Shown here in pieces: positions 41,248 to 62,688 of a DNA stretch of 64,000 nucleotides. Where the stretch lies: NCBI GenBank assembly GCA_951804945.1, contig OX638160.1:21080001-21144000 (forward strand). Reading direction: 5' to 3'. This DNA is from Podarcis cretensis. Lineage: Eukaryota. Within the stretch, counting starts at the first letter, position 1. Every line of letters begins with the position of its first letter. Under the pieces are notes generated by a model, which made no database searches, was not told the DNA's origin, and worked only from the letters and a program-made list of their open reading frames with translations. Position numbers and translations under genes: made by a program.

Positions 41248-41747
41248 GTAGGTTACAAATGGAATAATTTAAGGCAGTTGATGATGAGCTTAATGGGTTG
41301 CGTTACAACCCCTGGCACATGATGGAGGCAGGAGCAAAGAACTCTGGGAGGCAGGCACAGTCCTCAGTTTTTTCCTCCTGCTTGACTTGGCCTTTCTTCT
41401 TGCATTGGTTATTTTTATATCCTTTATTTCTTGGTTCATTAACTCTTTGATGGAACAAGAGAGGCTATTTACTTCTTTATTTTATGGTTTTGTTTTTTAA
41501 AATCCATAACAATTTATACACCACTTGATTGTAAACCCTCTTAACAAACTTTTGCATAAATTATCAGAACATGTCTGTCTTTTAGGACAGAAGAGAATAT
41601 CGTAGCACAGCCTATTATAAAGAGGTACTAAGATGTTAATCACATCAAGTTTACTAGCACTACAAGTTACATTAGCTCTACCTTCCTTATTGTTTTTCTT
41701 TAACTTGTACTGAATGCTTTAATAATTTGTTTTTCACATCCTTTTAG

Positions 41748-41822
41748 TCCCAGTCGCAAGGAGCCATTACATTTAAAATTATACCCAGTATCAAAGAAGA
41801 AACTGCATCTAAAGAAGGAAAG
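41748..41822 (+). CDS. MPP7: MPP7 coding exon 8 ([25 protein letters not shown])
   Basis: ttttAG / GTAAGA boundaries, 75 nt. Confidence 0.96.
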
Positions 41823-42011
41823 GTAAGAGGTCCTTTACTTAGAAAAAGGGACTAACTGAGATTGCTGGCTGAAATATATTTTGTACCCATATGTAAATGT
41901 GTTTTACAATTGTATTTTTACACATGTTGTTTGTATGCCAATAAGCAATAAAAACGGAGACTGGGGGTTGTAATAAGACATTTAATTACAAATAAGGCCG
42001 CCTTCTTCCAG

Positions 42012-42208
42012 ATCTTCATGAAAGCTCTGTTTGACTATGATCCCAGTGAGGATAAAGCAATTCCCTGTAAAGAAGCTGGACTTCCTTTCAGAAAAGGTGA
42101 TATTCTTCAGATCATGAGCCAGGATGATGCAACTTGGTGGCAAGCCAAGCTTGAAGGTAATGCCAATCCCAGGGCAGGCTTAATTCCTTCAAAGCATTTC
42201 CAAGAAAG
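42012..42208 (+). CDS. MPP7: MPP7 coding exon 9 (SH3: [19 protein letters not shown]...WWQAK...[11 protein letters not shown])
   Basis: ttccAG / GTGAGC boundaries, 197 nt, phase 0->2. SH3 ALFDY and WW motifs are present. Confidence 0.98.
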
Positions 42209-42706
42209 GTGAGCAGTTTCTGATTTCTCTGATACTTAAAATGTGATCAGTATATCTTTGATATAATTGTTATGCCTGCACTTATGGATTATAAGGTCAA
42301 TAAACTTTCAAGTTTTGTCCTATGGTAAAATGTCTGAACTTTGTAAATTGTTGCCCAAGTAGTTTGGTTTTCTTTATTTGTCTATTCACATTAATAATGA
42401 CAAAACCGTATAGAATATTTGTGATCCACCTTGGAAAGGAAAAACATATGGAAAATAGTACTTTGGTATCTGTATCTTTATTGATGTACTATGCATGAAT
42501 AACAACTGCAGCTGTGTTTGGAGAACATAAAAAACCCTTCTAGAATTTAATTTCATAGACTTGTGAGTAGACTGTATTGTTTAGGAATATGTCTTCTAAA
42601 AATCAGGATACTTTGGAAAAGACTGATATGGAGTGTTAATCTCAAAATAGCTATGAAAATTATAAAGAGTTTTGCTTCTCTTCCCTTCCCCCAAATCATT
42701 TTATAG

Positions 42707-42771
42707 GAGGCTTGCACTAAGAAGATCAGATGTACAGGTTCAGCCCTTGAAAGTTTCCAATAGAAAATCAT
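42707..42771 (+). CDS. MPP7: MPP7 coding exon 10 (HOOK: RLALRRSDVQVQPLKVSNRKS-S)
   Basis: ttatAG / GTAAGT boundaries, 65 nt, phase 2->1. The last base is T. Confidence 0.95.
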
Positions 42772-43957
42772 GTAAGTCTGTTTAAAAATCATACTCCTTT
42801 GTTCACACAAATATGGCTTGTATCAGCTCTTTTTAAGATATGGCGCTGGTATCTTCAGATATATCAGCAGGCCAAAACCTGTGATGCTGTAGGAATGGGA
42901 TTTTCGTTAAAGAAAATGGCTTACCCCCGCTTCCGACATCAATACTTATGCAAAACCTATTCCCTACAGTGAATAAAATAATAAATATGGCAATCTCTAA
43001 TTATTGGAAAGGCATTCTTAATGACTCACTGGGTATTTAAATACTACACAAAGGGGACACATGTGAAGTCAGTGCTTTTTTCAGGTTCAACCATCTACTT
43101 TTGAAGCATAGTCCAACAATATCTGGAGGTTGAGTGAAGCTGCTTTGGAGTATGTTTTTAGAACATATCAATAAATATCAGGCTGATATATGATCTATTA
43201 CCACTCATATGCTTATCAAATTTTCTATCTGCTTTTCTTATTAGAACTGAATTGGACTTATAAGAAGTGGCATATATAAGGCATATGTTTTAAAATGTAG
43301 CAAGAATATTCTAGCAAGTACTTTTTCTGTGTGCCTAATTAGAATTATATCAAAAGCAAATGATGTGAAAGCCCAGTATCTCTCATCATGGACTAAAAAT
43401 AGCATGTTTGAAGGTTTCAGAGTTCTAGTTTTTTTAAAAACACAGTAGTTCATTTTTCTATAGAACAAAGACAGTAACATTACTCTAAACCAAATCATTT
43501 TATTGGTGTACTTGAAGTTGGACAGCAAGATGATGAGCCACTTTCTGTAAGGTTTTGGAAAATTAATATAAAATGGTTGCATGGAATTATGTGTGTGTGT
43601 TGCGGGTCAGGAGCATGGAGAAGCAGTCATTTATATTTGTGAACTAGCTCTATTTCTGACATAGGATAGCACTGGACTACATTTGCATGAAATTGGTGAC
43701 ATTTGTTATATGGTGTAACTTATGCACGTGTCCTTAAATTTGTCATTCATTTGATGTAATATGTCTTCAAAAGAGAGCATGAACCATCAGTAATTAAAAT
43801 CAGTTAGACTAATACTGGCCAAAACACCTTCTATCCAACAGAACCATGATTTTTACCATGGTAGTATGCTTTTATATTTAAGCTGTATCACATGTGTTCT
43901 CATTCATATGACTAATAATAATTTAATATTGTTAATCCATAATTAGCATTGTGTAAT

Positions 43958-44334
43958 GGACGCAGGTGGCGCTGTGGGTTAAAGCCTCAGCGCCTAGGGC
44001 TTGCCGATCGAAAGGTCGGCGGTTCGAATCCCTGCGGCGGGGTGCGCTCCCGCTGCTCGGTCCCAGCGCCTGCCAACCTAGCAGTTCGAAAGCACCTCCG
44101 GGTGCAAGTAGATAAATAGGGACCGCTTACCAGCGGGAAGGTAAACGGCGTTTCCGTGTGCGGCTCTGGCTCTGGCTCTGGCTCTGGCCAGAGCAGCGAT
44201 GTCACGCTGGCCACGTGACCCGGAAGTGTCTCCGGACAGCGCTGGCCCCTGGCCTCTTAAGTGAGATGGGCGCACAACCCCAGAGTCTGTCAAGACTGGC
44301 CCGTACGGGCAGGGGTACCTTTACCTTTACCTTT
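43958..44334 (+). mobile_element. Sauria SINE copy 4
   Basis: Full length, with internal (CTCTGG)4 and an (ACCTTT)n tail. Short direct repeat ATGGACG at 43956-43962 and 44336-44342. Confidence 0.93.
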
Positions 44335-46627
44335 CATGGACGGGGTGGTTAATCTCTGAAAGACCTGGTTAAGTGTATAACCAAAATAAAATAGTAATTT
44401 TGATATTAAATATAAACTGAATTATATACTTTTTAAAATTTTCACTAAGTGCGAGAGAAGAAATATTTAATCACTGTCAAATATATTTATCAATATCATG
44501 TGATTTAGTATGGTGTGCATTCAAGCAAGATGCAACCTATTTTATAATTTTGAGAATTAATTGTGCACAATTCAAATTTTTATGTGGCGCCCAAACACTG
44601 AAAGTAAAACTCATTTTGTCAAATTCTACACTGTAACTCCTTATAACACTATCTGTTTTGTCAGCAAGCCAAACACATCTTCACTCTTCTTTCAAACCTA
44701 GTATTCTTCCTGACATTTAGTGAGGAGTCTTCCTCTAATATTCTCTACTATTGCAAGGACAGCAGACTTTGACCTCACTTTTTATGACTATTTGCAGTCC
44801 TAAATTATATAAAGTCAGTGTCATCTTGTCTTGGGTCACTTGCTGCTGTGGTGACGGCATTAACACAGGCTTCATCTTTGCAGTTTGCTGTCTCATCAAA
44901 CCGAAGAGTGCATTTGATGAATTTCAGTATTTTTGCCTAAAAGTTATCCACTTTAAAAAATACATTAGCATTTTTTGTTTTTATACTTTCTCACGCAAAT
45001 CTTTTTACGTACAAATTTTGTTAAATATTTTCGGTATAGCTTGGAAATTCAATTTTATACCTTAAGATTTTCATATGTTCACGAAAATCTTAGTGATCCT
45101 GCTTATGATAGTTTGTCAATTGACGCTCATTTATAAAATGGAGCTGCTGTGCATTGTGATGCAGGCAAGTGACTGAACTGAATGACTCCTGCTTTCCCCC
45201 AAATATACTGGGTAGAGTTATGCATCTGTTGTGCATAGCAAATGGCAAACATTTAGAACCTTGTCGCAAAGCAGTTGCATGTTCAACTAATAATGAAACA
45301 GATCCTTGAGATCAATCATCAGTTGTGTTCCAATTTACTTTCAAGTAATTTGTGTTACTTCTTCAGCCCAGTTCTTTTGTCAGTTTCCTTTCTGTGCATC
45401 TTACAACCATATTTCTTTTGCATGCTTAATTTTTTCTTTATCCATTCTAACCAAACTTGCCTTTCCATCTTAGAAAAATATATAAGAAAGTGGAACCACA
45501 ATTATTATTATTTGTAGTGTGGCATGCTCCTGTTCAGTACACACATGTACACAGCCTTTTTTCCTCCACCCCCAGTCAGCCAAGATTTTGTTTCAGTCAC
45601 ATTTTAGTAATTTTTTATTGTATATTGTTTTAAAATCTACTGTTTATTTTATTTTACTCTTGTCAAGTTGCTTTGAGATTTTCAATAGAAAGTGACTGAA
45701 TATTCATTAACATAATATTGCTCATTGAGCATGCTCAGTCTTCAGTGTGCTGTTTTGTAGTTTCTTGGCTATTTCCTTCCATAATACCCCCCCAAATCTC
45801 CATTTTGTGCTGTTTTAGCTGTATAAGGGCTTGATATCTAAGAATTGAGATGGCTAACAGTATTTATAATTCATGCCAAATATAAGTAGGCTACGTTATG
45901 GAACTTAAATGTTGGATACATCAAAGTAGCAGGTACCCGCATCAGTAACTAATAATTATGCAACTTCATGGATTGTGCTCCATGCAGGAAGCTTTCCTGT
46001 TGATGTAGCCTCCAAAGGGGTCCAAGCATGCCAGTGGAAATCTTGTCTCTCCTTGTGAATGCGAGGGGCTTTCATGGTAATGATCTGGCCAAGTTTTGTG
46101 TTAACAGATCTCACACACTGCTCACTTCATAAATGCAACACCCTTAACAGTTCAGGTGGGAAAATTTATCCTCATTGAAAAAATAAATTCTGAAGGAGGC
46201 TTTTCTTCCCCAGTAAGCATTTGTCCTCCTCTTCATTTCTTTCTCAGCTAAGCAACTAAGCTCTTCCTGGGTTCAAAGAAGGTGGGCTATGACAAATTTA
46301 GCAGGAGCCTATAATTTAATTCTTTCTTAACAGCGCAATCCAAAGTGTTTGGATTTGGCAGATCTTGGGCTTTCTTGGCTGAGAAGATAATGGTATTGCT
46401 CTGTAAGAGCAACTCTCTCATAATACATTGTATCATTTGTAAAGAGCACATATATGAACTATTATTAGTCCTTTGCCTCTTAAGAACGCATTCAAGTAGG
46501 GGTGTCCTGCCCTTCCTTTGTGATTGTGACTTCCTTGTATTGTAAAGGGACAAGAATCTGAATAACTACATGCATGTGCCCTTTAAAACTGATATGCATG
46601 TGTGTTGTGCCCTGATATCTGTAACCA

Positions 46628-46675
46628 TAGTATGACATTTCATCAGTAAAGTAGTATGACATTTCATCAGTAAAG
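46628..46675. repeat. Perfect 24-bp tandem duplication
   Basis: TAGTATGACATTTCATCAGTAAAG x2. Confidence 0.95.
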
Positions 46676-46832
46676 TAATAATGATCAAGGAGCAATAAAA
46701 GTGGTACTAGCGGAAGTTGTGTCTTTGGTGGGAGGGGAGACTTTGATGGGCAAGCAGGCAGAGAAATGAGCCCAAAGAAAGTTTGTTCTACTGCATTGTA
46801 AGTTGTCTTTGGGATGTGTCTAATAAACTAGG

Positions 46833-46970
46833 GCAGGGGTGGGGAGCCTGTCGCCCCCATATGTCACTGAACTACAGCTCCCATTCTTCATGACCATTAG
46901 CCATGCTGGCTAGGGCTGATGGGAATCAGAGTCCAGCAACATCTGGAGAACCTCAGGTACCCTCATTCCG
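46833..46970. mobile_element. Short hairpin (hAT-like) MITE of a dispersed family
   Basis: Core ACTACAGCTCCCAT...GCTGGCTAGGGCTGATGGGA..AGTCCAGCAACATCTGGA. Related copies lie at about 23600-23740, 32720-32860, 49437-49672 and 61984-62080. Confidence 0.6.
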
Positions 46971-46978
46971 GGCTCAGA

Positions 46979-47171
46979 CAGAGCTTTCCAAACCGTGTGC
47001 CACGACACAGTGTGTAAGCTGCAGTGTGTAGGTGTGTCAAACAAACACTCCCTGTGCTCTTATAAGGGGTTAGTTTAACCTCTGGCTTGCTAGTAAAACT
47101 GAATTACTACGTCACAAAATGATGCATGTCTAAAAAGAGTGTCACCAATATGAAAAGTTTGGAAAGCTCTG
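46979..47171. mobile_element. hAT-superfamily MITE
   Basis: TIRs CAGAGCTTTCCAAAC / GTTTGGAAAGCTCTG. Degenerate 8-bp flanks GGCTCAGA / GGCTAGAG. Confidence 0.75.
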
Positions 47172-47617
47172 GGCTAGAGGAAGTCTCTGGATGAAAGCAA
47201 CAACCTGTAGACAACTTAACTTCGACTTAAGAGTGTAACCATTTCAAAATTACAATTGAAAACCCAGTGGCTCTTACTTATGATGCTAAGCAGAACATGA
47301 CTAGTTAATGTGTTGTTTTTTCATCCCAGGGCTGGTGCAAACCTTTCTGTCTCTTAAACAGTGTTAGGGGAATATAGCCTTTGCATACACACCAAAAAAC
47401 CTTACACATTTTGAAAGTGAGGTTCTGTCATTTCCTACTCCCATAAAAGAAATTGGGGTACAGGCTTTTGCAGCAAAATGTTGAACGTGCCGTGCATCAT
47501 ACTTCTGCAAAATATGCTCTTAACCTGTTCTTTATATTACTCAGCTCTGTTTTTCCCATTTTATTATGTGCTGAATATAATGTAAATTATGTCTGCTTGT
47601 CTTTTGGCTGTTCTAAG

Positions 47618-47638
47618 CTGAGGAAACAGTTGAGTGTG
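47618..47638 (+). CDS. MPP7: Candidate MPP7 alternative microexon A, 21 nt (S-EETVEC-)
   Basis: Pyrimidine-rich tract with TGC, ttctaAG acceptor and GTAGGT donor. Phase 1->1, matching the flanking exons. Confidence 0.65.
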
Positions 47639-47735
47639 GTAGGTGTTTTACCCCCCCCCCCTTTTATTCTTCCATTATGTCTTCAGTCCATGTAATCACT
47701 TTGCATCCTATTTTTCCCCCTTTTGCGCTTCTCAG

Positions 47736-47747
47736 AGGAAATTAAAG
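47736..47747 (+). CDS. MPP7: Candidate MPP7 alternative microexon B, 12 nt (E-EIK-)
   Basis: Long pyrimidine tract, ttttGCgcttctcAG acceptor (TGC close to the 3'ss) and AAG/GTACAT donor. Phase 1->1. Confidence 0.65.
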
Positions 47748-48444
47748 GTACATGTACAAGTTTCCCTGCTGGGCTGCAAGTGATGGCTTAAAAACTAAGT
47801 ATTCTAGGTCATCACTGACTTAGAGGCAATTAGAAAATAATCCATATAGATAGCAGTATATGTAGTCATAACAGCCAGTTGCTTTGTTGTTGCTGGAATT
47901 GTTGTTCCAGTCCTGAGAATCGTGGTAGCAGAAGACTGTGAACCTGTTGCTTTCTGCACGTAGTTCCTTCAGCACAGTACTGGCATGTGTGCATGAAGAT
48001 TCCTGTGGGGTAAGGCACAGGGATCCACATGTGTTATCCCATTGTCAGATGTGGTTTCTTCCTATGTATTTTTCCTTCTCACATAGCAGGAATTTTGGGG
48101 GCCCAACACAACAGATCTGCCTGTTTCTGCACATGGGTCAAGTATGCAGAACAGGAGTGAATGTGTGCTAAAACCTCTGAATGTTAGCAAAGTAACATAA
48201 CTGAACAAAGCAGATATGTTAACACAAGACATTTCCATGGAGCTAAAGATGATGTCAGTCCTATTGCATGGCTCTAATAGATTATCTTTCTTAAATTCAA
48301 ACTTTGACACTGAATAAAGTGGATCTTGTCCAGTCATTAGGGGTGCAGTTTTGGAACACAGCTTGACAGATGCTTTACTGCTGTGTCAATCTTTAGGGGA
48401 CTTTTCACTTGCAGCATACATTTAAACAGTTGTAGCTCATTGAT

Positions 48445-48605
48445 NNNNNNNNNNNNNNNNNNNNNNNNNNNNNNNNNNNNNNNNNNNNNNNNNNNNNNNN
48501 NNNNNNNNNNNNNNNNNNNNNNNNNNNNNNNNNNNNNNNNNNNNNNNNNNNNNNNNNNNNNNNNNNNNNNNNNNNNNNNNNNNNNNNNNNNNNNNNNNNN
48601 NNNNN
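48445..48605. other. Assembly gap (N run)
   Basis: Run of Ns lying between candidate exons B and C. Confidence 0.99.
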
Positions 48606-49078
48606 AGTATTTTGTTAGACATTTGGTATATTAAATAGGCACCAATACTATTTTATACCTAAGAAGTTATATTCATTAAAAATACCCTTTATGTCTGATC
48701 CATTGAGCCAAATAGAAAAACTCCAGATATTCTTTGTAGATTTCTTTACCTTTGTGTTTCAGCTGTTGAATTTTTTATCCTACATTAAAATATAAAGTAG
48801 AACATCTTTTAAAATCACTTCTTTATTTTCTGTCATGAATAAGGCAATAAAACAGTGAAAAGTTAAATATGCATGTTGCTGTACTCCAAAATCTCTTGCT
48901 CAACTTCAGAACAACACAGTGATTTATTTTTAAGCAGTAGCATATTGAAGGCTTTTTATGCTGTGCTTTCTGCAGTTGTCATTTTTAAGTAACTCTTCTT
49001 TTGCATTCATGGCTGGGCATCTAACTATTCTGCTTTATTTCTTGGCTTTTGTTCTGTACGCTTTTACACTTCATCCAG

Positions 49079-49120
49079 AGGAAGCTGAATGTGCTGGTCA
49101 CAACAGTGGAGCCCACATAG
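49079..49120 (+). CDS. MPP7: Candidate MPP7 alternative exon C, 42 nt (E-EAECAGHNSGAHI-A)
   Basis: CTAAC branch point at 49021, long pyrimidine tract, catccAG acceptor and TAG/GTGAGC donor. Phase 1->1 with an open frame. Confidence 0.75.
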   Translation, partial: RKLNVLVTTVEPT

Positions 49121-52100
49121 GTGAGCAGTTGCTTACAAAAGACTCTCTTTCTTTCTCAGCTTTTTCCTGGATGGCTACAGAGTTTGCAGGTAATGGGCAT
49201 CACTGCATGCAATGAATCTGCTAGATTAAAAAATGGCTCACTGGATTTGACACAAAGGATCTGCATCCTAACCGCAACATATGTTACTAACATTGAAATA
49301 TAGAATGCATTGAAATGCTACCTTGAATATGAGGAAATAATTTACTTGGGTAGAATTTGCAAATAAATTTAAATACTTGTCCTAGACAAAATGCTAGGCT
49401 GGCTATATTCCATCTGACTACATTATTTTTCTATCACAGTGTTCTTCAATCTTGGGTCCCAGATGATATTGAACTACAACTCCCATCAACCCTTATCATT
49501 GAATAAGCTGGTAGGAATGGTGAAAGTTGTAATCTCGTGACTTAGTGTAGGGATAGCCATTGTGGTACCTGACACATGTTGTGGGCTACAATTTTCATCA
49601 TCCCTGACCATTGGCCACTCTGACTTGAGTTGGTGGCTCCATAACATCTAGAGGGTACCACGTTGGCTATTGCTGACTTACAGGGAATTAAGTTAGTACT
49701 GTTGGATGGCTGGGGTTACTTTCTTGTCAATGAGCCAAGTAATGATACCACGGACTGGCTCATCTTTGCTCACCTATTCTTGAAGTGGTTTACTGGTAAT
49801 TCCTTAGAAGATGCTACATAAGAACCATTGTAAGTTGAACATACCATATCAGGTTTTCTTTATTCTTCAAGGAAGGGATGTGGGAAGAGGACACAAATTA
49901 TTGGTAAGAATTGGCCCATATTGGGGGATAAAATGGGGTAGAATAGGGAAGGAGGTTGAGATCATGGTGATGCAGGAACTACTCAGGGTAAATCAGCAGC
50001 ACAAGAGTAGGTGGAAACTAATTGAGGGCATGCTACATTATTAATATATCAATGTCACATGTTTTATTAAAGGGGAAGGTGGCACTGCAAATGGGTAGAC
50101 TGGTAGAGAGGTTTGTGTGTCACCATGCTTCCAGATAGATTTTAGAAGCTGTGCAGTAGCTGAATGATATTTTCTTCCCACTTACATTTATCTGTGCCTT
50201 GAAATAATCATCTGAAACGCTTCTCTGAGTACCCCTGCAAACTGAGGTGCAGAGAGAATAGTCATGAGCGAAAAGGCTTTCTGCTTGTGGAATGCCAGAG
50301 AGGCCCACCTGGCACACATTTTAATGCCTTTCTGGTGCCAGGCAAATAACTTTTCTTATTCATTTTCCCAGGCATTTTTAAATATTTCTAAATTGAAATA
50401 ATTAATTATTTAATCTTTGCATGCTGCTGTGATTTTAGCATGGTCATTTTAGTTCTGTGAAATTTATTTTGGGAGCTCTCTCTGTCTTACTGATTATTGA
50501 TGTGATTTCTAATCTTGTGGTCTCTATTTTATAGTTGTTTTATTCTCTTTAATGATTTCTTGTTTTGTTTAAATAGTTTTTGATCATTGACATCACTCAG
50601 GGAACTGCTGTTGGGAGACTGATAAAAAATAGCAGTACCACTGATGGCACTATTCAAATTAGCAACTTTAATGCCAGACCTTGCTAGTTGATCTCTTCAG
50701 TTGAAATATATGTTTTCTTTAACTTAGTAGAATTGAGTATGATGGATTATCAACCTTAACTCACACCTTTTGTCATACAGAATAAAATTGCATAACAATA
50801 AGTTTCAGATCAAGGAACTAGGTAGTTATCATAAGATTATTCCGAGTAGTTCATGGGATGTGTAGAGGTATGCCAGAATTCATTGGTAATGAGAGGGGGG
50901 GGGACTCCATCACTACTTTTGCCTTCCTCCTACATACCTCTACCAGCAGGGCTCTATGAGCCTCCATGTAGGTGATACTTACATACCCTGAGGTATCTGC
51001 AGTCAGCCTGTTCAGTTTGGTATCACTCTTGGCGCAGTATGTTCACTGATCTCCATTGTTCCAACCAGGATCTGAAGCAGGTTAGCAAGCATTAGTTTAG
51101 AAGGGAACCTTGTGAGTACCAATGCAGATGCACTCTAAGCTAAGGCTTGGAAGGAAACTTTTGCAGGAAAGTTGGAGGAAGAAGGGGAGACCATTGGGTC
51201 ACTCCCAGTTTCTTAACTGTGGATACAGGGTGGAAGTGTTATAGCTTCATTCGGTTTTCATGAAATGTTATTTCTGGGATTCATAATGTGAAACCACAGT
51301 GGTGTCAGACATACAGAATAAAAACTATTTAAAAGCCCTAGTCATATGTCAGGAATTGGGTGTACTGTTATAAGGTGGCCTCAGAAATGAACTTCCTACA
51401 GACTAGAGTTGTCCAGAAATAATTAACTATGTTTTTACTGTGCTAGTCAAGGATATGGTGCTGGTTTAGCAGAGAACTTGCTATTTGTCTATAATGTATG
51501 TCAAACTGTATTAAATTTGACACACAAAGCATGTATATCATCGTAGATTGTGGGCCTGTGGGCAGGGCTTTACCATTTATGTCTAAATGATACCTACTTT
51601 TGTGAGATGTTTGCTGTTGATACTTATTGGAAACAATGGCTTGTCTTTTTCTCTATATACATTGAAGACAAAGGGTTGTCTTCAATGTATATAGATAAAA
51701 AAGTGCATACAATTTTGAAAAACAGTGATTGGTATTAAATGGGCAGCAGTGAAGGACAGAAGTTGAACTAATTTTCATGTAGTTTAATGGTTCAAACCAT
51801 GTAGTTAAACTATTTTGTTGGTAGTAAACTGTTTGCATACTATTAAAAACAATAATTGGTTTCACCCTTTTGGAGAAAACTATTTAAATAGCTATTTACT
51901 AACATACTTAAAAACTCAATAAACTCAATATAAATACCGGTTTTAGACTCCAAGAAGAATGGTGTGAGCCATTACCAGAAGAGGGGGTGTTGCTCCCTTT
52001 TGTTTCTACAGCTAGTTGCTAGAAACATGTTCAGTGTGTAGCATTTCTAAAGTGGTTGATTGCACCTGGAATAGTCTAACACTTTAACCTGACCAGGAAG

Positions 52101-53088
52101 AGGGGATTAGCATTAGGGGGTGGGAAGTCCTGTTCAGTGTTTGCTAATTTGTTACAATCTAGTTTGACCATGAAATGGGATCGATGCAAAGGGTTCTGCA
52201 CCCAGGAGCTGGCTTAATTTTCAGTGCCCTTCACTGATGATCTGTGGAACAAAACAGAGGAAAGTTTTTGCTTTCCCTCAAGTATGTACTTCTAGAGGGG
52301 AGCCTAAACCTTTTGAGCAGCAGCTATTCTTTTGTAGAGTAAGGAGGGCATTCAGATACCCTCCAGGAGTGCCTCTCCCACCAGCAGGAAACAGGGTTAG
52401 CTTGCAAAGTTGACTCCTCTGTTGGAAGGAGCTATCAGGCTGCCATAAGCACCATGGAACCAGTGAAGGCCTTATTTGGTGCCCCCAGCTTTCATTTTTC
52501 AAAAGTACATGTCTCTACCCCTCCTAGGAAAAAAATATAATCAAAGTGTGCAGGTACCCTTCTAAGCACCAGTAATTTCTGTGAAATGATTAGCCAGTGA
52601 GTGAAGTGAGAGCTGTGATTGATAAGTGAGCTGTTTAGACACCAGGCAGTGGGAAAACTTGGGGCTCCAAATAGCTGTTGTCCCTCTTTAGTGCCCTTTT
52701 CCTGCTTCTGTCTTTTATCCTAGTCCTTGGATCCACCCAGTTGCTGCTCTGTTTCACTTTGCTTCCTGCCATCCATATAAAGCAGCTGCTTCAGAAACTG
52801 TTTGAAAATGTGGGAGATGAAATCTGGGGGTCCTTCCCATTGCTGCTTTGTTTGTTTTGCTGCCTATTGGAATGTAGAGTGGGTGGCTGCTTGATAGATG
52901 CCACAGTAGAATACTGGGGGGTGGGGGAAGGTTATGACAACCATTTGTTGTTTCTGCTGCATACCCTGCAATGGGGATTGTTCCAAAGTTGTTTGGGTGA
53001 GGGCAGTGCAGAGGCTTCATATTGATGGTGATAATAATTATCACATTTTTCCTGGTTCTTTTTTATGAGTGAGCAAGTGCATAAGTTT

Positions 53089-53124
<36 letters not shown>

Positions 53125-53148
53125 CACCACCACCACCACCACCACCAC
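53089..53148. repeat. Compound microsatellite (TAC)9(CAC)11
   Basis: Read directly. It explains the poly-Y/H/T/G/S ORFs in the track. Confidence 0.97.
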
Positions 53149-54987
53149 CTTTCTCCTGCTTGTTCTCAAGTGTTGTTGTTTTGCCAGGGGTGGGACATTT
53201 CCAAAGAATCATTCTCATCATCACCTTTTCCTCTTGTCTGTCACACATCAAGCATTGTTCCCAAGTTGTTTGGGAAAGGGAGTGCTCAGTGCAAAGGCAG
53301 AAACACTATTACTGTCATCTCTTCATACACCCCTTATTTCAACAGCTACTCTGATGAGTTTTTAAAATGACTTTCCTTTGCATTTTCCTTGCATTTCTAT
53401 TTGTTGTTGTTGTTTATTAAATTTGTATACCACCCTTCATCTGACAATCACAGCATTAAATTTTTCCCTATTCAGGTGTACTGCTGGCTGTAGTGATTCA
53501 GAATTATTCCTGCATTCAGTTATCTTTTAATTTCTAGCTCTGATCTACAGCAGCACGTCAGAAGTATTGTATTCTCTGGCAGATCAGCATGCTGGGATGC
53601 AGTTGTGATGGGAGTTCAGGGTGGGAGTGATAGAATTCTTAGATGTTTAACTGTGTAACTCATTCATTTAAGGGACAAGACATTCCTGTGGCTCTATTAA
53701 AAGCAGTCACTATTGACTCTGAGCACTACCATTTTGTCTCAATGCTGCTCCCATGGTGTTTATGAAGGTTCTGGTCATACCAATAGTGCACCAGAGGATG
53801 CAAAGTATTGAAACTTAAAGAAGTATCAAGTGGCTTGAATTAAAGGTGATCATACTGATACGTTGGGCTTTTCTAGGCAACATAAAAGGCAAGCAGATCT
53901 TGGTAAGGACAAGCAACAACTCAGTGAAGATCTGTCTCAGCAGGCAAGGAGGCATGAGATCTATTTCCCATCATAAGAAGCCTGTCCTGGATTGCTCAGA
54001 GTAGAACATCTGACTCAAGTGACAAACACGACTGTAGACTGGATGAGCTATGTCGTCTAATATATTGACTGTTTCTCCCCTTAATTATATTTTATCTTGT
54101 GCCCCATTTAATGATGTATGTGTTATCAGAACAAAGCATATTGGTGTTGCAATGATTAAAATTGATTTTTAATGTAATTCAAGACTGTGAAGCTACTAAT
54201 AGGCATAGCTGTCAACGTTTCCCTTTTTTAAAAGGGAAATTCCCTTATTCTGAATAGGATTCCTTGCAAGAAAAGGGAAAAGTTGACAGCTATGACTAAT
54301 AGGTTTTTAGAAACATTCATCGCTGTTGTTGACTTTCTTTGAACCAGTGTGGATGTCAAATATATGATCTCAGCTGGGAACGTATTTAGATAAAGAATGA
54401 GTGTCTTCTGTTGATTCTGCAAGCACTTATTAAAATATCAGTATCTGGGAGTTGTGGTAATTATCAGTATTTTGGGGGTAGGGATATCAGCAAATTTTGC
54501 AAGTCTGTATTACAAATGTGACATTTCCCCATATTTCTGTTCTCAGTGCTTAACAGAGATCTAGCCTGCTATACCAATATGATGTTGTTTTTTTAAAAAA
54601 TACATCATTCCTAATTTTCACCAGCAACCCATACACTTTGAAATTGGCACCTTTTGAATAAAAATATTTTGGTAATGTGATTAGGCCACAATCCTATCTA
54701 AAAACATAGGGGGACTTCAAAAGTAAACACAAAACAATGGAGATTAAAAAGACGTCAAATTTCACCCCATGTGGCTCCCATATGCCCTTGCATGAGCCTA
54801 ATCAAATATATATGGAAAACAATTTGGACTTTGAATTTGGTCCTTTCAAATATAAGGAAGAAAAACTACTAAGTAACAAAAGTAACAAATTCCCATATGA
54901 AGGAGTGTTTGTTACAGATGGGCTACTGGCTAGGCTGATGACAGTAACCCTTGCTTCTGCTTCTTTTTTTAAATCTCGTAACTACAG

Positions 54988-55158
54988 CTGGTTTCAGGAG
55001 GAGTTTCCGTCTCAGCAGAAAAGATAGAAAAACAAACAAGACTATGTATGAATGCAAGAAGAGTGATCAGTACGATACAGCAGATGTCCCAACTTACGAA
55101 GAAGTAGCAAAGTATAGACGACAGCCCAATGAGAAATACAGACTTGTTGTCTTGGTTG
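54988..55158 (+). CDS. MPP7: MPP7 coding exon 11 ([17 protein letters not shown]...[23 protein letters not shown])
   Basis: ctacAG / GTAAGT boundaries, 171 nt, phase 1->1. Covers the HOOK and the start of GUK. Confidence 0.97.
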
Positions 55159-58087
55159 GTAAGTTTTAATTATTTGAATTAGGAACCTAGGTTGTTTAAA
55201 TAAAGACTAAACTGTTTTGTTTCATGTTATCTTTTTGAACTTTAAAAATCATATGCCAAAGCAACCTGAAATGCTCAAAAGTCTCAGGAGGCTCATGTGG
55301 AAGCAGATGTTTCCTGAGGTCCATATATTCAAGTATATTTATAAGGAACCACAAGGGCAGGCAGGTACTGTACAAAGATAAAAATGTACATTAGTTGCTC
55401 TTTTGCCTCTGGCCTCATCCACCACTGGCATGTAAACCTCAGAAAGCTGATAGCTGAAAGATTCAGAGGTGCCCCAGCACAATGGCAGCTAGAGCATGTG
55501 TCTATATGCATATCTGAGAACAGTAAGCATCCAGCATAAAAGTCTCATGGACTTGTTTCATGTCGACCTAGCCATATTGGCCAGATTGCATGAATATTCA
55601 TCATATTTATCCTGGGCCTGAAAGCAAGAAGGATATGAGAAGGCTCTCCAGTATGTGAGGCCCAGAAGCAGAGAGAGTGAACTTCTGTCTTTACAGCTTC
55701 CATCATTCTTTTTCCTGGCCTGACAGCCTGTGCATTCACCTGCTGAAAAGATGATTTTCATCCCTTTTCAGTCACATACATTGTTTTCCCACATGGAAAA
55801 GGAGTACCTGGATGTTTAGCTTGTAGCCTTTCTGTAAAGTTTCTCTCCCTATCATGCAGATGTAATGTGTTTCAGTTCTTAGTTAAGGATTGTGATCTCC
55901 TCTTTGCCAAACACTTAAAACTTGACTCAGAATCTTGCCCGGTTGGGTGAATTACACTGCAGAGGGGAAGGCGTTATAAGCTTTATTCGGCTTTATTTTA
56001 CCTGTCTCAAAAAGACAACATAAGACGAAGCCTCCTGATTCAGGCCAAGGCTCACCTAGTCTAGCATCTTGTTCTCACAGTGGCCAACCACATACCTATA
56101 GGAAGCCCACAAGCAGGACATGAGTGCAATAGCACTCTCCCAAGTTGTAATTCCTGCCAACTGGTATTCAGGTCATAGTCAACAAATAGTCAACTTGTAT
56201 TCATAGTCAACAAATGCCTTGAGATGGTTCACAAGACATTTATTTAGCTAGCTAGCTAGCTAGCTCGCTCCCCTTTTCCTGTGCTCTTAAATCTCATCAC
56301 ACTGTAGGGATAGCTAATCACAAGCAGATCTGCAGTCATGGTGCAAGACTCTATTATTATTATTATTATTAAGTGTTTGACACATAGCCACAGCAGATTT
56401 CATCAGTTTTGCTTCCGTTTGCTTTAGAGTGCCATTCTATTTGACTCCAGGGTAAACCTGTCAGAGTTTTATTATTTGCCAGTAGCCAATAAAAAAATAC
56501 CCACTATTGCATCAATTATGAAGCTAAGGAACATAACTATGAAGCAATCAATATACCAAACACTGTTTGCTAATGTGTTACATAAACAAGCTACCCTTTA
56601 TTTGCAAACAGATTCCTAGTCTTCCTTAACTGTGTTTTATCAAAAATAAGTGGGGCCAATGTGGACTAGTAGCTGACTATAGTTGCAGGGTAGCCCAATC
56701 AAGTGTTCTGTTCTGTTCTGTTCTTGTGTTGGGTGATTCCTATATTACCTCAGCAGTTAATTCCATCATATGCTCAGGACTGGTCACTTGCAGAAACTTA
56801 AAATATGGTCCAGAACATAAAATAGGATGGGGTTATGGTCTGTGAATCTAGTCAGCAATCTCAATACTTGATAACCAATTTAGAGATCTTACAAAAGCCT
56901 TTTAGAAATATTTTCCAATATACTCCATTTACAATCCAACAATTGTAAATTGTTCTTGTACTTGTTGCACTACATTTTAGTTTCTTTTGCAGTAGTGTAT
57001 AGGCCAATGTTTCATTAGCAGAATTTCTTCCATTATAAAAAGTTGCAGACCAGAAGAAATATGACCCTCTATCAGGGACTGTTATGAACTGTAGAACTGC
57101 TGTTTTTATATAGCTCATATCCAAGGGAACACTTAAAATCAGTTTTTAATAAACAGCTTTGTCATTCTCTAACGCACAAGTTCAGGCACCTACTACTGTG
57201 AGCGAGAGATTGTGGGTTCTACACAGCAAGTAATAACATGCTTGAGTTGATTTTACACCTATATCAACAGAGTTCTGTGAAATGGGTGATAAGTAGACTT
57301 TTTATAACAAATCACATATGCTGGCTCTGAGGGATATCTAGAAATTTCGTTTTATTTTGGTGGTACTAAATCAAGTGAAGAAAGTGTGCTTTTACAGTAA
57401 CAAAAGCAGCTCACAAATTTATTGCAGACTTCAGTAATTTTGATGTTTTTCTCTTGGTATTAGAAGCAGCATAAGTCTGGCCAATATCATAAAAATGTCT
57501 TGGGTAAAATGTGGAAAAACTGGCACTGTTAATATAGGTACAGTAGAAATGATCAGATTTAAAAGCTTTGGACATGTTAGTAGTTGCATCCAATACGATG
57601 TGTGAAATACAATTTTGATGTTAGTGCCAGGAAATACAAGGACAAATAATTAAATTTTCACATAATTGGTTGTGGCAAAAATGTTCAGCTATAGTAACTG
57701 AAAACACAATTTATTATTGGAGTCTATTTAAAAAATAATTGGCTGCCAAGTAGATGTTTCACTTAAACTTACTTTAAATAAATGAATTCTAATTCACAGA
57801 ATATAAACTCGATGTAGAGTTTAGACTATCACTGGGATGCGATTCTCCTTTCTATCTAATCCCAGCTCCTGCACATTTGCTGCCATCTGCCTTTTTTCTC
57901 TCTCTTCTACCTAACAGGCCCAGATGGAGGCTCTAACCAGTTTTGGTTCACCCCAATAGATAATTTGGATAGTGAATGCTTATTTAGCTGCATTCTGGTC
58001 CCTAAAATAAAGTAGCCATTGTTTTTAGGTAAGTGGGCCCTGAGCTATGGGGTGGTATGTTAACCCACTGGAGAAAGCACAAGTCTT

Positions 58088-62595: not shown

Positions 62596-62688
<93 letters not shown>

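Follow-up and report, generated by a model that had tools for sequence, protein, structure and literature searches.

A junction-encoded stop codon in an ancient optional-exon cassette of lizard MPP7, probably a by-product of amino-acid coding

Skipping an exon that preserves the reading frame is commonly taken to be harmless, and the MPP7 gene of the lizard Podarcis cretensis raises the question of what happens when the outcome hangs on a split codon instead. The window analysed here is a stretch of 64,000 nucleotides (nt) of contig OX638160.1 (positions 21,080,001 to 21,144,000, forward strand). Its gene is the lacertid MPP7, a MAGUK of the p55 subfamily, recognized both by its L27-PDZ-SH3-GUK architecture and by its identity to MPP7. 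Coding exons 10 and 11 are separated by an intron of 12.2 kb that holds a cassette of short exons (A, B, C and D), each of which keeps the frame. Exon 10 ends in the T of a split codon and exons B and C begin with AG, such that joining exon 10 directly to either produces TAG. We read this locus, at a probability of about 0.5, as an ancient optional-exon cassette in which the junction stop is a likely by-product of coding through which mis-combined transcripts would be passively filtered out by decay.

Gene structure and the junction stop

We searched the window and the next 40 kb of the same genome for MPP7 exons by tblastn. The 576-residue Podarcis MPP7 record resolved into 12 coding exons in the window and four in the following 5 kb. 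L27, PDZ and SH3 domains (the last ending at about residue 295) are followed by the guanylate-kinase domain (GUK, from residue 368), and the protein site of the cassette is the linker between SH3 and GUK, known as HOOK. Exons A, B, C and 11 are all flanked by AG and GT splice ends, with B 97 nt downstream of A and C 1.3 kb from B. The features are as follows; in this list and below, a slash within a codon marks an exon junction.

42012..42208, forward strand: MPP7 coding exon 9 (SH3 domain), by tblastn; spliced joints on both sides in RNA contigs of 4/4 runs
42707..42771, forward strand: MPP7 coding exon 10, 65 nt, last base T of a split codon (residue 318); GT donor next; joint to exon 9 in 4/4 runs, joint to A in 1/4
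47618..47638, forward strand: microexon A, 21 nt, CT...G, with an AAG acceptor; joined to exon 10 in an RNA contig (42771->47618, run X13) and present in squamate records
47736..47747, forward strand: microexon B, 12 nt, AG...G; peptide in frog, bird, turtle, crocodilian, mammal and gecko records
48997..49078, forward strand: conserved intron segment upstream of C, from its read-through translation against read-through gene models
49079..49120, forward strand: cassette exon C, 42 nt, AG...G; A+C form in Podarcis, Anolis, Pogona, snake and gecko records
49082..49084, forward strand: candidate bypass acceptor, an in-frame AAG 6 nt inside C (exon start 49085, T/CT = Ser); open frame, crude score
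49160..49189, forward strand: cassette exon D, 30 nt, CT...G, 39 nt after C; in 10 lacertid records, frame open
54988..55158, forward strand: MPP7 coding exon 11, beginning CT; completes the SH3-GUK linker and opens GUK; 100% identity to Podarcis and gecko MPP7 records
62596..62682, forward strand: MPP7 coding exon 12 (approximate), by tblastn; exons 13-16 lie beyond the window

We translated all eight combinations of A, B and C placed between exons 10 and 11. Five remained open (none, A, AB, AC and ABC), and three (B, C and BC) contained TAG at the junction because, without A, the terminal T of exon 10 meets an initial AG. An earlier sequence-only reading of this locus had proposed the same five coding and three truncating combinations, and our translations reproduced them; the bases that it relied on (T at 42771, CT at the start of A and exon 11, AG at the start of B and C, G at the end of A, B and C) were all verified, and its numbering of exon 10 agreed with the coding-exon count by tblastn. 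Shifting the acceptor of B or of C by 2 nt (+2) likewise yields a stop. The junction TAG is codon 318 of 576. Five further exon junctions follow beyond exon 11 (exons 12-16 are downstream), and the stop precedes the final one by over 50 nt, which makes it a predicted trigger of nonsense-mediated decay (NMD) under the 50-nt rule. We infer that transcripts with these junctions are made and decayed.

Use of the exons and the bypass at exon C

We classified the insert in 325 proteins, gathered by two MPP7 searches and two cluster look-ups (14 could not be parsed). These records are mostly automated gene models, are not independent and are biased by the queries, one of which was the ABC insert itself; all counts below therefore stand for presence, not frequency. 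Peptides of A, B and C were found in MPP7 records from frogs to primates. Among 205 non-squamate named records, 63 had no insert and 91 had ABC (59 with a long C, 27 with a short C and 5 with an additional rodent exon), followed by C alone (37), AB (6, including 2 with an additional Xenopus exon) and AC (3), with 5 unparsed. The 110 squamate records comprised 53 without insert, 31 with AC (2 with the short C, both geckos), 10 with D alone, 5 with A alone, 4 with ABC (one gecko species), 1 other and 6 unparsed; exon B was in no lacertid record retrieved. Annotated RefSeq and Ensembl models already hold these exons: XP_028607220 of Podarcis has A+C, XP_053266580 has D, and chicken, Xenopus, dog and baboon isoforms have ABC.

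Contigs of four sequencing runs, presumed to be RNA and seen to be spliced, covered positions 41700-47721 only. Exons 8, 9 and 10 were spliced together in all four runs, and the joint between exon 10 and A (42771->47618) was present in a contig of one (X13, from a related organism). The main X13 contig runs 3 letters beyond exon 10 (1016+67+3 = 1086), a weak hint that the paths part within A and exon 11, which share the start CTG, and not where exon 10 ends. Assembled contigs of this kind drop rare forms. The peptides and the joint to A dispose of the possibility, raised in the sequence-only reading, that the exons are not used at all. We rejected the idea that another exon ending in G had been overlooked in the interval from exon 10 to A; none of the 110 squamate records held such an insert. 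A crude splice-site scan with approximate weights returned five candidate exons, one of them D and the others frame-shifting, stop-containing or within a repeat; the scan is weak because A, B and C all escaped its thresholds. Searching protein clusters at 50% added one MPP4-like record with longer acidic inserts and little else that was new.

A UGC motif close upstream of the acceptor is a feature of SRRM3/4-type microexons. We found UGC at -12 before B and at -24 before A, but also at -30 to -36 before the constitutive exons 10 and 11, and none in the 40 nt before C. With lengths of 21, 12 and 30 nt, the frame-preserving exons A, B and D fall within the 3-30 nt range of neural microexons (PMC8395343), and C, at 42 nt, is too long. 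A study of mouse islets tabulates a 21-nt Mpp7 microexon as NEURAL-UP (PMC8395343 Table S2) which, from its length only, would correspond to exon A; Mpp7 was not in the supplements of PMC4801060. The SH3-HOOK (D5) region, into which the inserts fall, has been tied in a review to the recruitment of MPP7 via MPP5 to the Crumbs complex (PMC7662862).

The records separate squamates from other tetrapods at exon C. C without A, one codon shorter and with Tyr at the junction, was present in 37/205 non-squamate records (birds, turtles, crocodilians, platypus and newt) and in 0/110 squamate records. Because C is recorded without A through a shorter acceptor, A is not obligatory for C across amniotes. 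After B, too, C occurs in a long and a short form (Glu-Asp vs Asp), indicating two acceptors 3 nt apart. The proteins thus point to a tandem acceptor in non-squamate tetrapods that, 3 nt further on, would skip the stop at C (T/AY = Tyr), and to a NAGNAG at exon C in these animals and in geckos. In every squamate record containing C, this Asp is replaced by Glu. Geckos retain long and short C, each starting with the tail of a Glu codon, and either acceptor would give a stop after T because the change from Asp to Glu makes both start with AR. The replacement therefore appears to remove the Tyr bypass. In the window, AG occurs at +0, +2 and +6 of the C acceptor and not at +3, so the site is not a NAGNAG.

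Squamates differ in two further respects: the first codon of exon A has changed from Tyr to Ser, and A-only forms occur (5/110 records vs 0/205 elsewhere). Judged from these protein differences, the present lizard has a tight, squamate-specific version of a layout that would have been leakier in its ancestors. Unlike the gate on C, that on B is probably general; the residue at the A/B junction is Glu in 105/105 records. The sequence-only reading had made A an obligatory gatekeeper for both B and C. Its logic holds in this sequence, where the 50-nt rule also predicts decay, but not as a rule for amniotes, given the non-squamate records of C without A. On its question whether the terminal T and the initial AG are conserved across amniotes, the proteins imply that T and the Glu of B are kept, and that the gate on C leaks outside squamates. 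It had overlooked exon D and the in-frame AAG inside C, which would give an open junction between exon 10 and C.

The paralogue MPP3 and the competing explanations

In MPP3 of the same genome, a 65-nt exon ending in T is followed by a 21-nt exon (A') and a 42-nt exon (C') that has three tandem acceptors (AAG, CAG, AAG; G000:C13:20532433-20532441). When the 21-nt exon is left out, the junction codon becomes Ser, the stop TAA (T/AA, from the middle acceptor) or Tyr, according to the acceptor used. Each bypass is represented among the 77 protein records that could be parsed out of 120 (2 from Podarcis, 5 from birds). As far as the two genes can be compared, the junction-stop layout is older than MPP7 and common to MPP3. 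No such stop forms at the likely MPP4 locus (minus strand, G000:C1 about 130089900-130105600), where the counterpart of exon 10 has C as its last base, indicating that the MPP family can do without the stop. This interval also holds a 21-nt exon resembling A.

The MPP3 exon has been noticed in mammals. In PMC13078869 (Tables S2a, S4a) its 21-nt exon, flanked by exons of 65 and 42 nt, carries the flag NMD_ex for both human (chr17:43816676-43816697) and mouse (chr11:102010206-102010227); the flag is a prediction by the 50-nt rule, accompanied for mouse by a long-read flag at E14.5. MPP3 stands in the supplement rows and is unnamed in the main text of that study, and MPP7 is not among the rows examined of its event tables for alternative splicing coupled to NMD (AS-NMD). 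The MPP7 event resembles this one in its identical exon sizes (65/21/42 nt) and in that skipping a frame-preserving 21-nt exon leads to predicted NMD; in lizard MPP3, T/AA at the junction is the cause of the stop. The two differ in that the MPP7 reference is the form without insert. Because A'+C' is the commonest form in the MPP3 records, skipping A' is there the unproductive event. Only MPP7 has the additional exon B, and only there has the tandem bypass at C been lost in squamates. A frame-preserving length was found in 1/90 human NMD_ex rows of Table S4a, that of MPP3 itself, in a non-random sample (rows 1-60 and 701-730 of 1,361) known beforehand to include MPP3.

Under the explanation that we favour, A, B and C are ancient optional exons, likely tissue-regulated, that lengthen the stretch from SH3 to the guanylate-kinase domain by an acidic peptide. 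The T/AG stop that arises when A is omitted would be a by-product of the amino acids encoded: as the protein records imply, T is needed for Ser when the insert is skipped or for Tyr or Ser when A is included, and AR is needed for the Glu found at the A/B, A/C and B/C joints. Lizards would sometimes still splice exon 10 to C and NMD would clear the product, leaving nested isoforms (none, A, AC and ABC) plus lacertid D. Ser or Tyr occupies the junction in 310/310 parsed records although several residues occur just before it (S 290, I 12, T 6, A 1, L 1), so T is firmly kept. This constancy is predicted alike by protein constraint and by selection for the stop. The junction Glu is invariant in 28/28 unique ABC inserts, but three internal Glu positions are equally so; invariance at the gate on B is therefore no proof of selection for the stop.

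The alternative that selection has acted on the stop itself is possible, though we think it improbable. Here, A would be regulated apart from B and C as an AS-NMD switch that sets the output of MPP7 (and MPP3), and squamates would have tightened the gate by losing the Tyr bypass. The layout common to both genes speaks for such a switch, as do the rarity of frame-preserving NMD_ex events and the MPP3 event itself, which is dynamic in human and mouse brain development and is flagged as conserved NMD (PMC13078869). So does the strongly conserved intron before C, where about 80 nt (48997-49078), likely a splicing-regulatory element, match in translation the mis-predicted read-through gene models of rattlesnake (27/27 residues), turtle (24/27) and finch (19/27). 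We nevertheless favour the passive filter, because the junction Glu is conserved no more than its neighbours and because bypass acceptors are kept and used in most tetrapod lineages and in MPP3; the absence of MPP7 from the AS-NMD rows examined and of a cycloheximide response of MPP3 in the one table examined (PMC13078869) also argue against a switch. That missing response (for human induced neurons a delta-PSI, the change in percent spliced in, of 0 without a P value; for mouse a 0 in the column for cycloheximide) is at the same time one of several points that weigh against the passive filter. T persists in two paralogues and frame-preserving events are scarce among the NMD_ex rows, both of which fit selection for the stop. 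T is also not the consensus last base of an exon. A-only records occur only in the clade with the closed gate, which could reflect co-evolution, and the records themselves are the automated, non-independent and query-biased models described above. Finally, the 0/110 squamate records with C alone are uninformative on whether stop-junction transcripts arise; zero is expected either way, because protein databases cannot hold stop-containing forms.

It is doubtful that the gate exists on paper only, with A, B and C co-included by one SRRM3/4-type regulator, A most easily, and stop junctions almost never made. Exons A and B are close together, adjacent exons are frequently co-included (PMC11610585), UGC lies 12 nt before B and the squamate forms are nested (A, AC, ABC). 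However, the non-squamate records of C without A indicate that C can be spliced independently, and C is remote from B and lacks the motif. We consider it unlikely that this lizard evades the stop through the in-frame AAG at +6 of C, which would leave C ungated even here. The resulting junction (exon start 49085) is open, giving Ser, and exon A uses an RNA-confirmed AAG acceptor, but the site scores -5.3 against 3.8 for the main acceptor on our crude, approximate weights, and no squamate record (0/110) has the form although it would be coding. Least likely is that the transcripts escape decay and yield a 317-residue L27-L27-PDZ-SH3 protein, the GUK-less MPP7 entertained in the sequence-only reading. 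A stop at codon 318 would indeed fall between SH3 and GUK, but the five junctions after exon 11 make a strong NMD context, and no such isoform was noticed among the 325 records, in searches not aimed at it.

Neighbouring sequence and relation to known events

Among the records, exon D is confined to lacertids: Podarcis muralis, P. raffonei, Zootoca vivipara and Lacerta agilis together account for all 10 that carry it. It looks like a young exon, and it is ungated, being open with or without A. No record carries both C and D. The two are likely too close (39 nt) for joint inclusion, minimum intron size being a limit on splicing both; the C acceptor with the D donor would make an open 111-nt exon. 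Other lineages have additional exons of their own here, rodents after C and Xenopus after B. Elsewhere in the intron, positions 43958-44334 are a repeat that is rich in GC and present in very many copies (in each of the four runs the contig depth is >40,000); it ends in short ACCTTT-like repeats and presumably resembles a Sauria SINE (short interspersed nuclear element). A second interspersed repeat region, with depth in the hundreds to thousands, lies at about 46820-47330, a few hundred bases before exon A, and a short (about 25-nt) tandem duplication at 46627-46678 is read differently by the RNA contigs and is probably a polymorphism. Rfam gave no match in 42000-55200.

Stop-codon indels have been described at tandem splice sites of the NAGNAG and GYNGYN types (PMC1779574), CFTR E831X being one (PMC2951375), and point mutations make and destroy NAGNAGs as exon boundaries evolve (PMC3250501). 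As in those cases, a 3-nt acceptor shift at MPP7 adds or removes a stop; unlike them, it is the choice of the upstream exon that decides whether a stop forms, and the C acceptor in the window has ceased to be a NAGNAG. Of internal isoform changes, 17% are flanked by 'ragged' split codons, in which a residue is altered (Biosurfer, PMC12047184). Skipping-triggered NMD is a common regulatory mode that MPP7 would share with classical AS-NMD, of which the DLG4 and PTBP2 exons in NMD_ex rows are examples (PMC13078869 Table S4a). Classical events work through a frameshift or an exon-internal stop, whereas every MPP7 exon keeps the frame and the ragged codon is itself the stop. Neither the junction stop nor the clade difference in bypass is described in the annotated isoforms and NEURAL-UP microexon sources examined. 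We found no account of the MPP7 junction stop in the literature; subscription papers, VastDB and bioRxiv supplements may list such events.

The sequence logic, the reality of the exons and the paralogy with MPP3 are directly supported. The cassette is ancient, and its junction stop is likely a variant of AS-NMD for which we propose a role in decay. A bolder version, which we hold only as a speculation, is that a split-codon poison junction has gated the linker inserts of MPP3 and MPP7 since before their duplication, that squamates made it a hard AND-gate by one Asp-to-Glu change, forcing an A-first order, and that lacertids then gained the ungated D. The split-codon route to NMD appears rare in the NMD_ex rows sampled. 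If the clade differences deduced here hold, MPP7 offers a natural experiment in which the same exons sit behind an open bypass in birds, turtles and crocodilians and a closed one in squamates, and whether such junctions are selected gates or passengers becomes testable.

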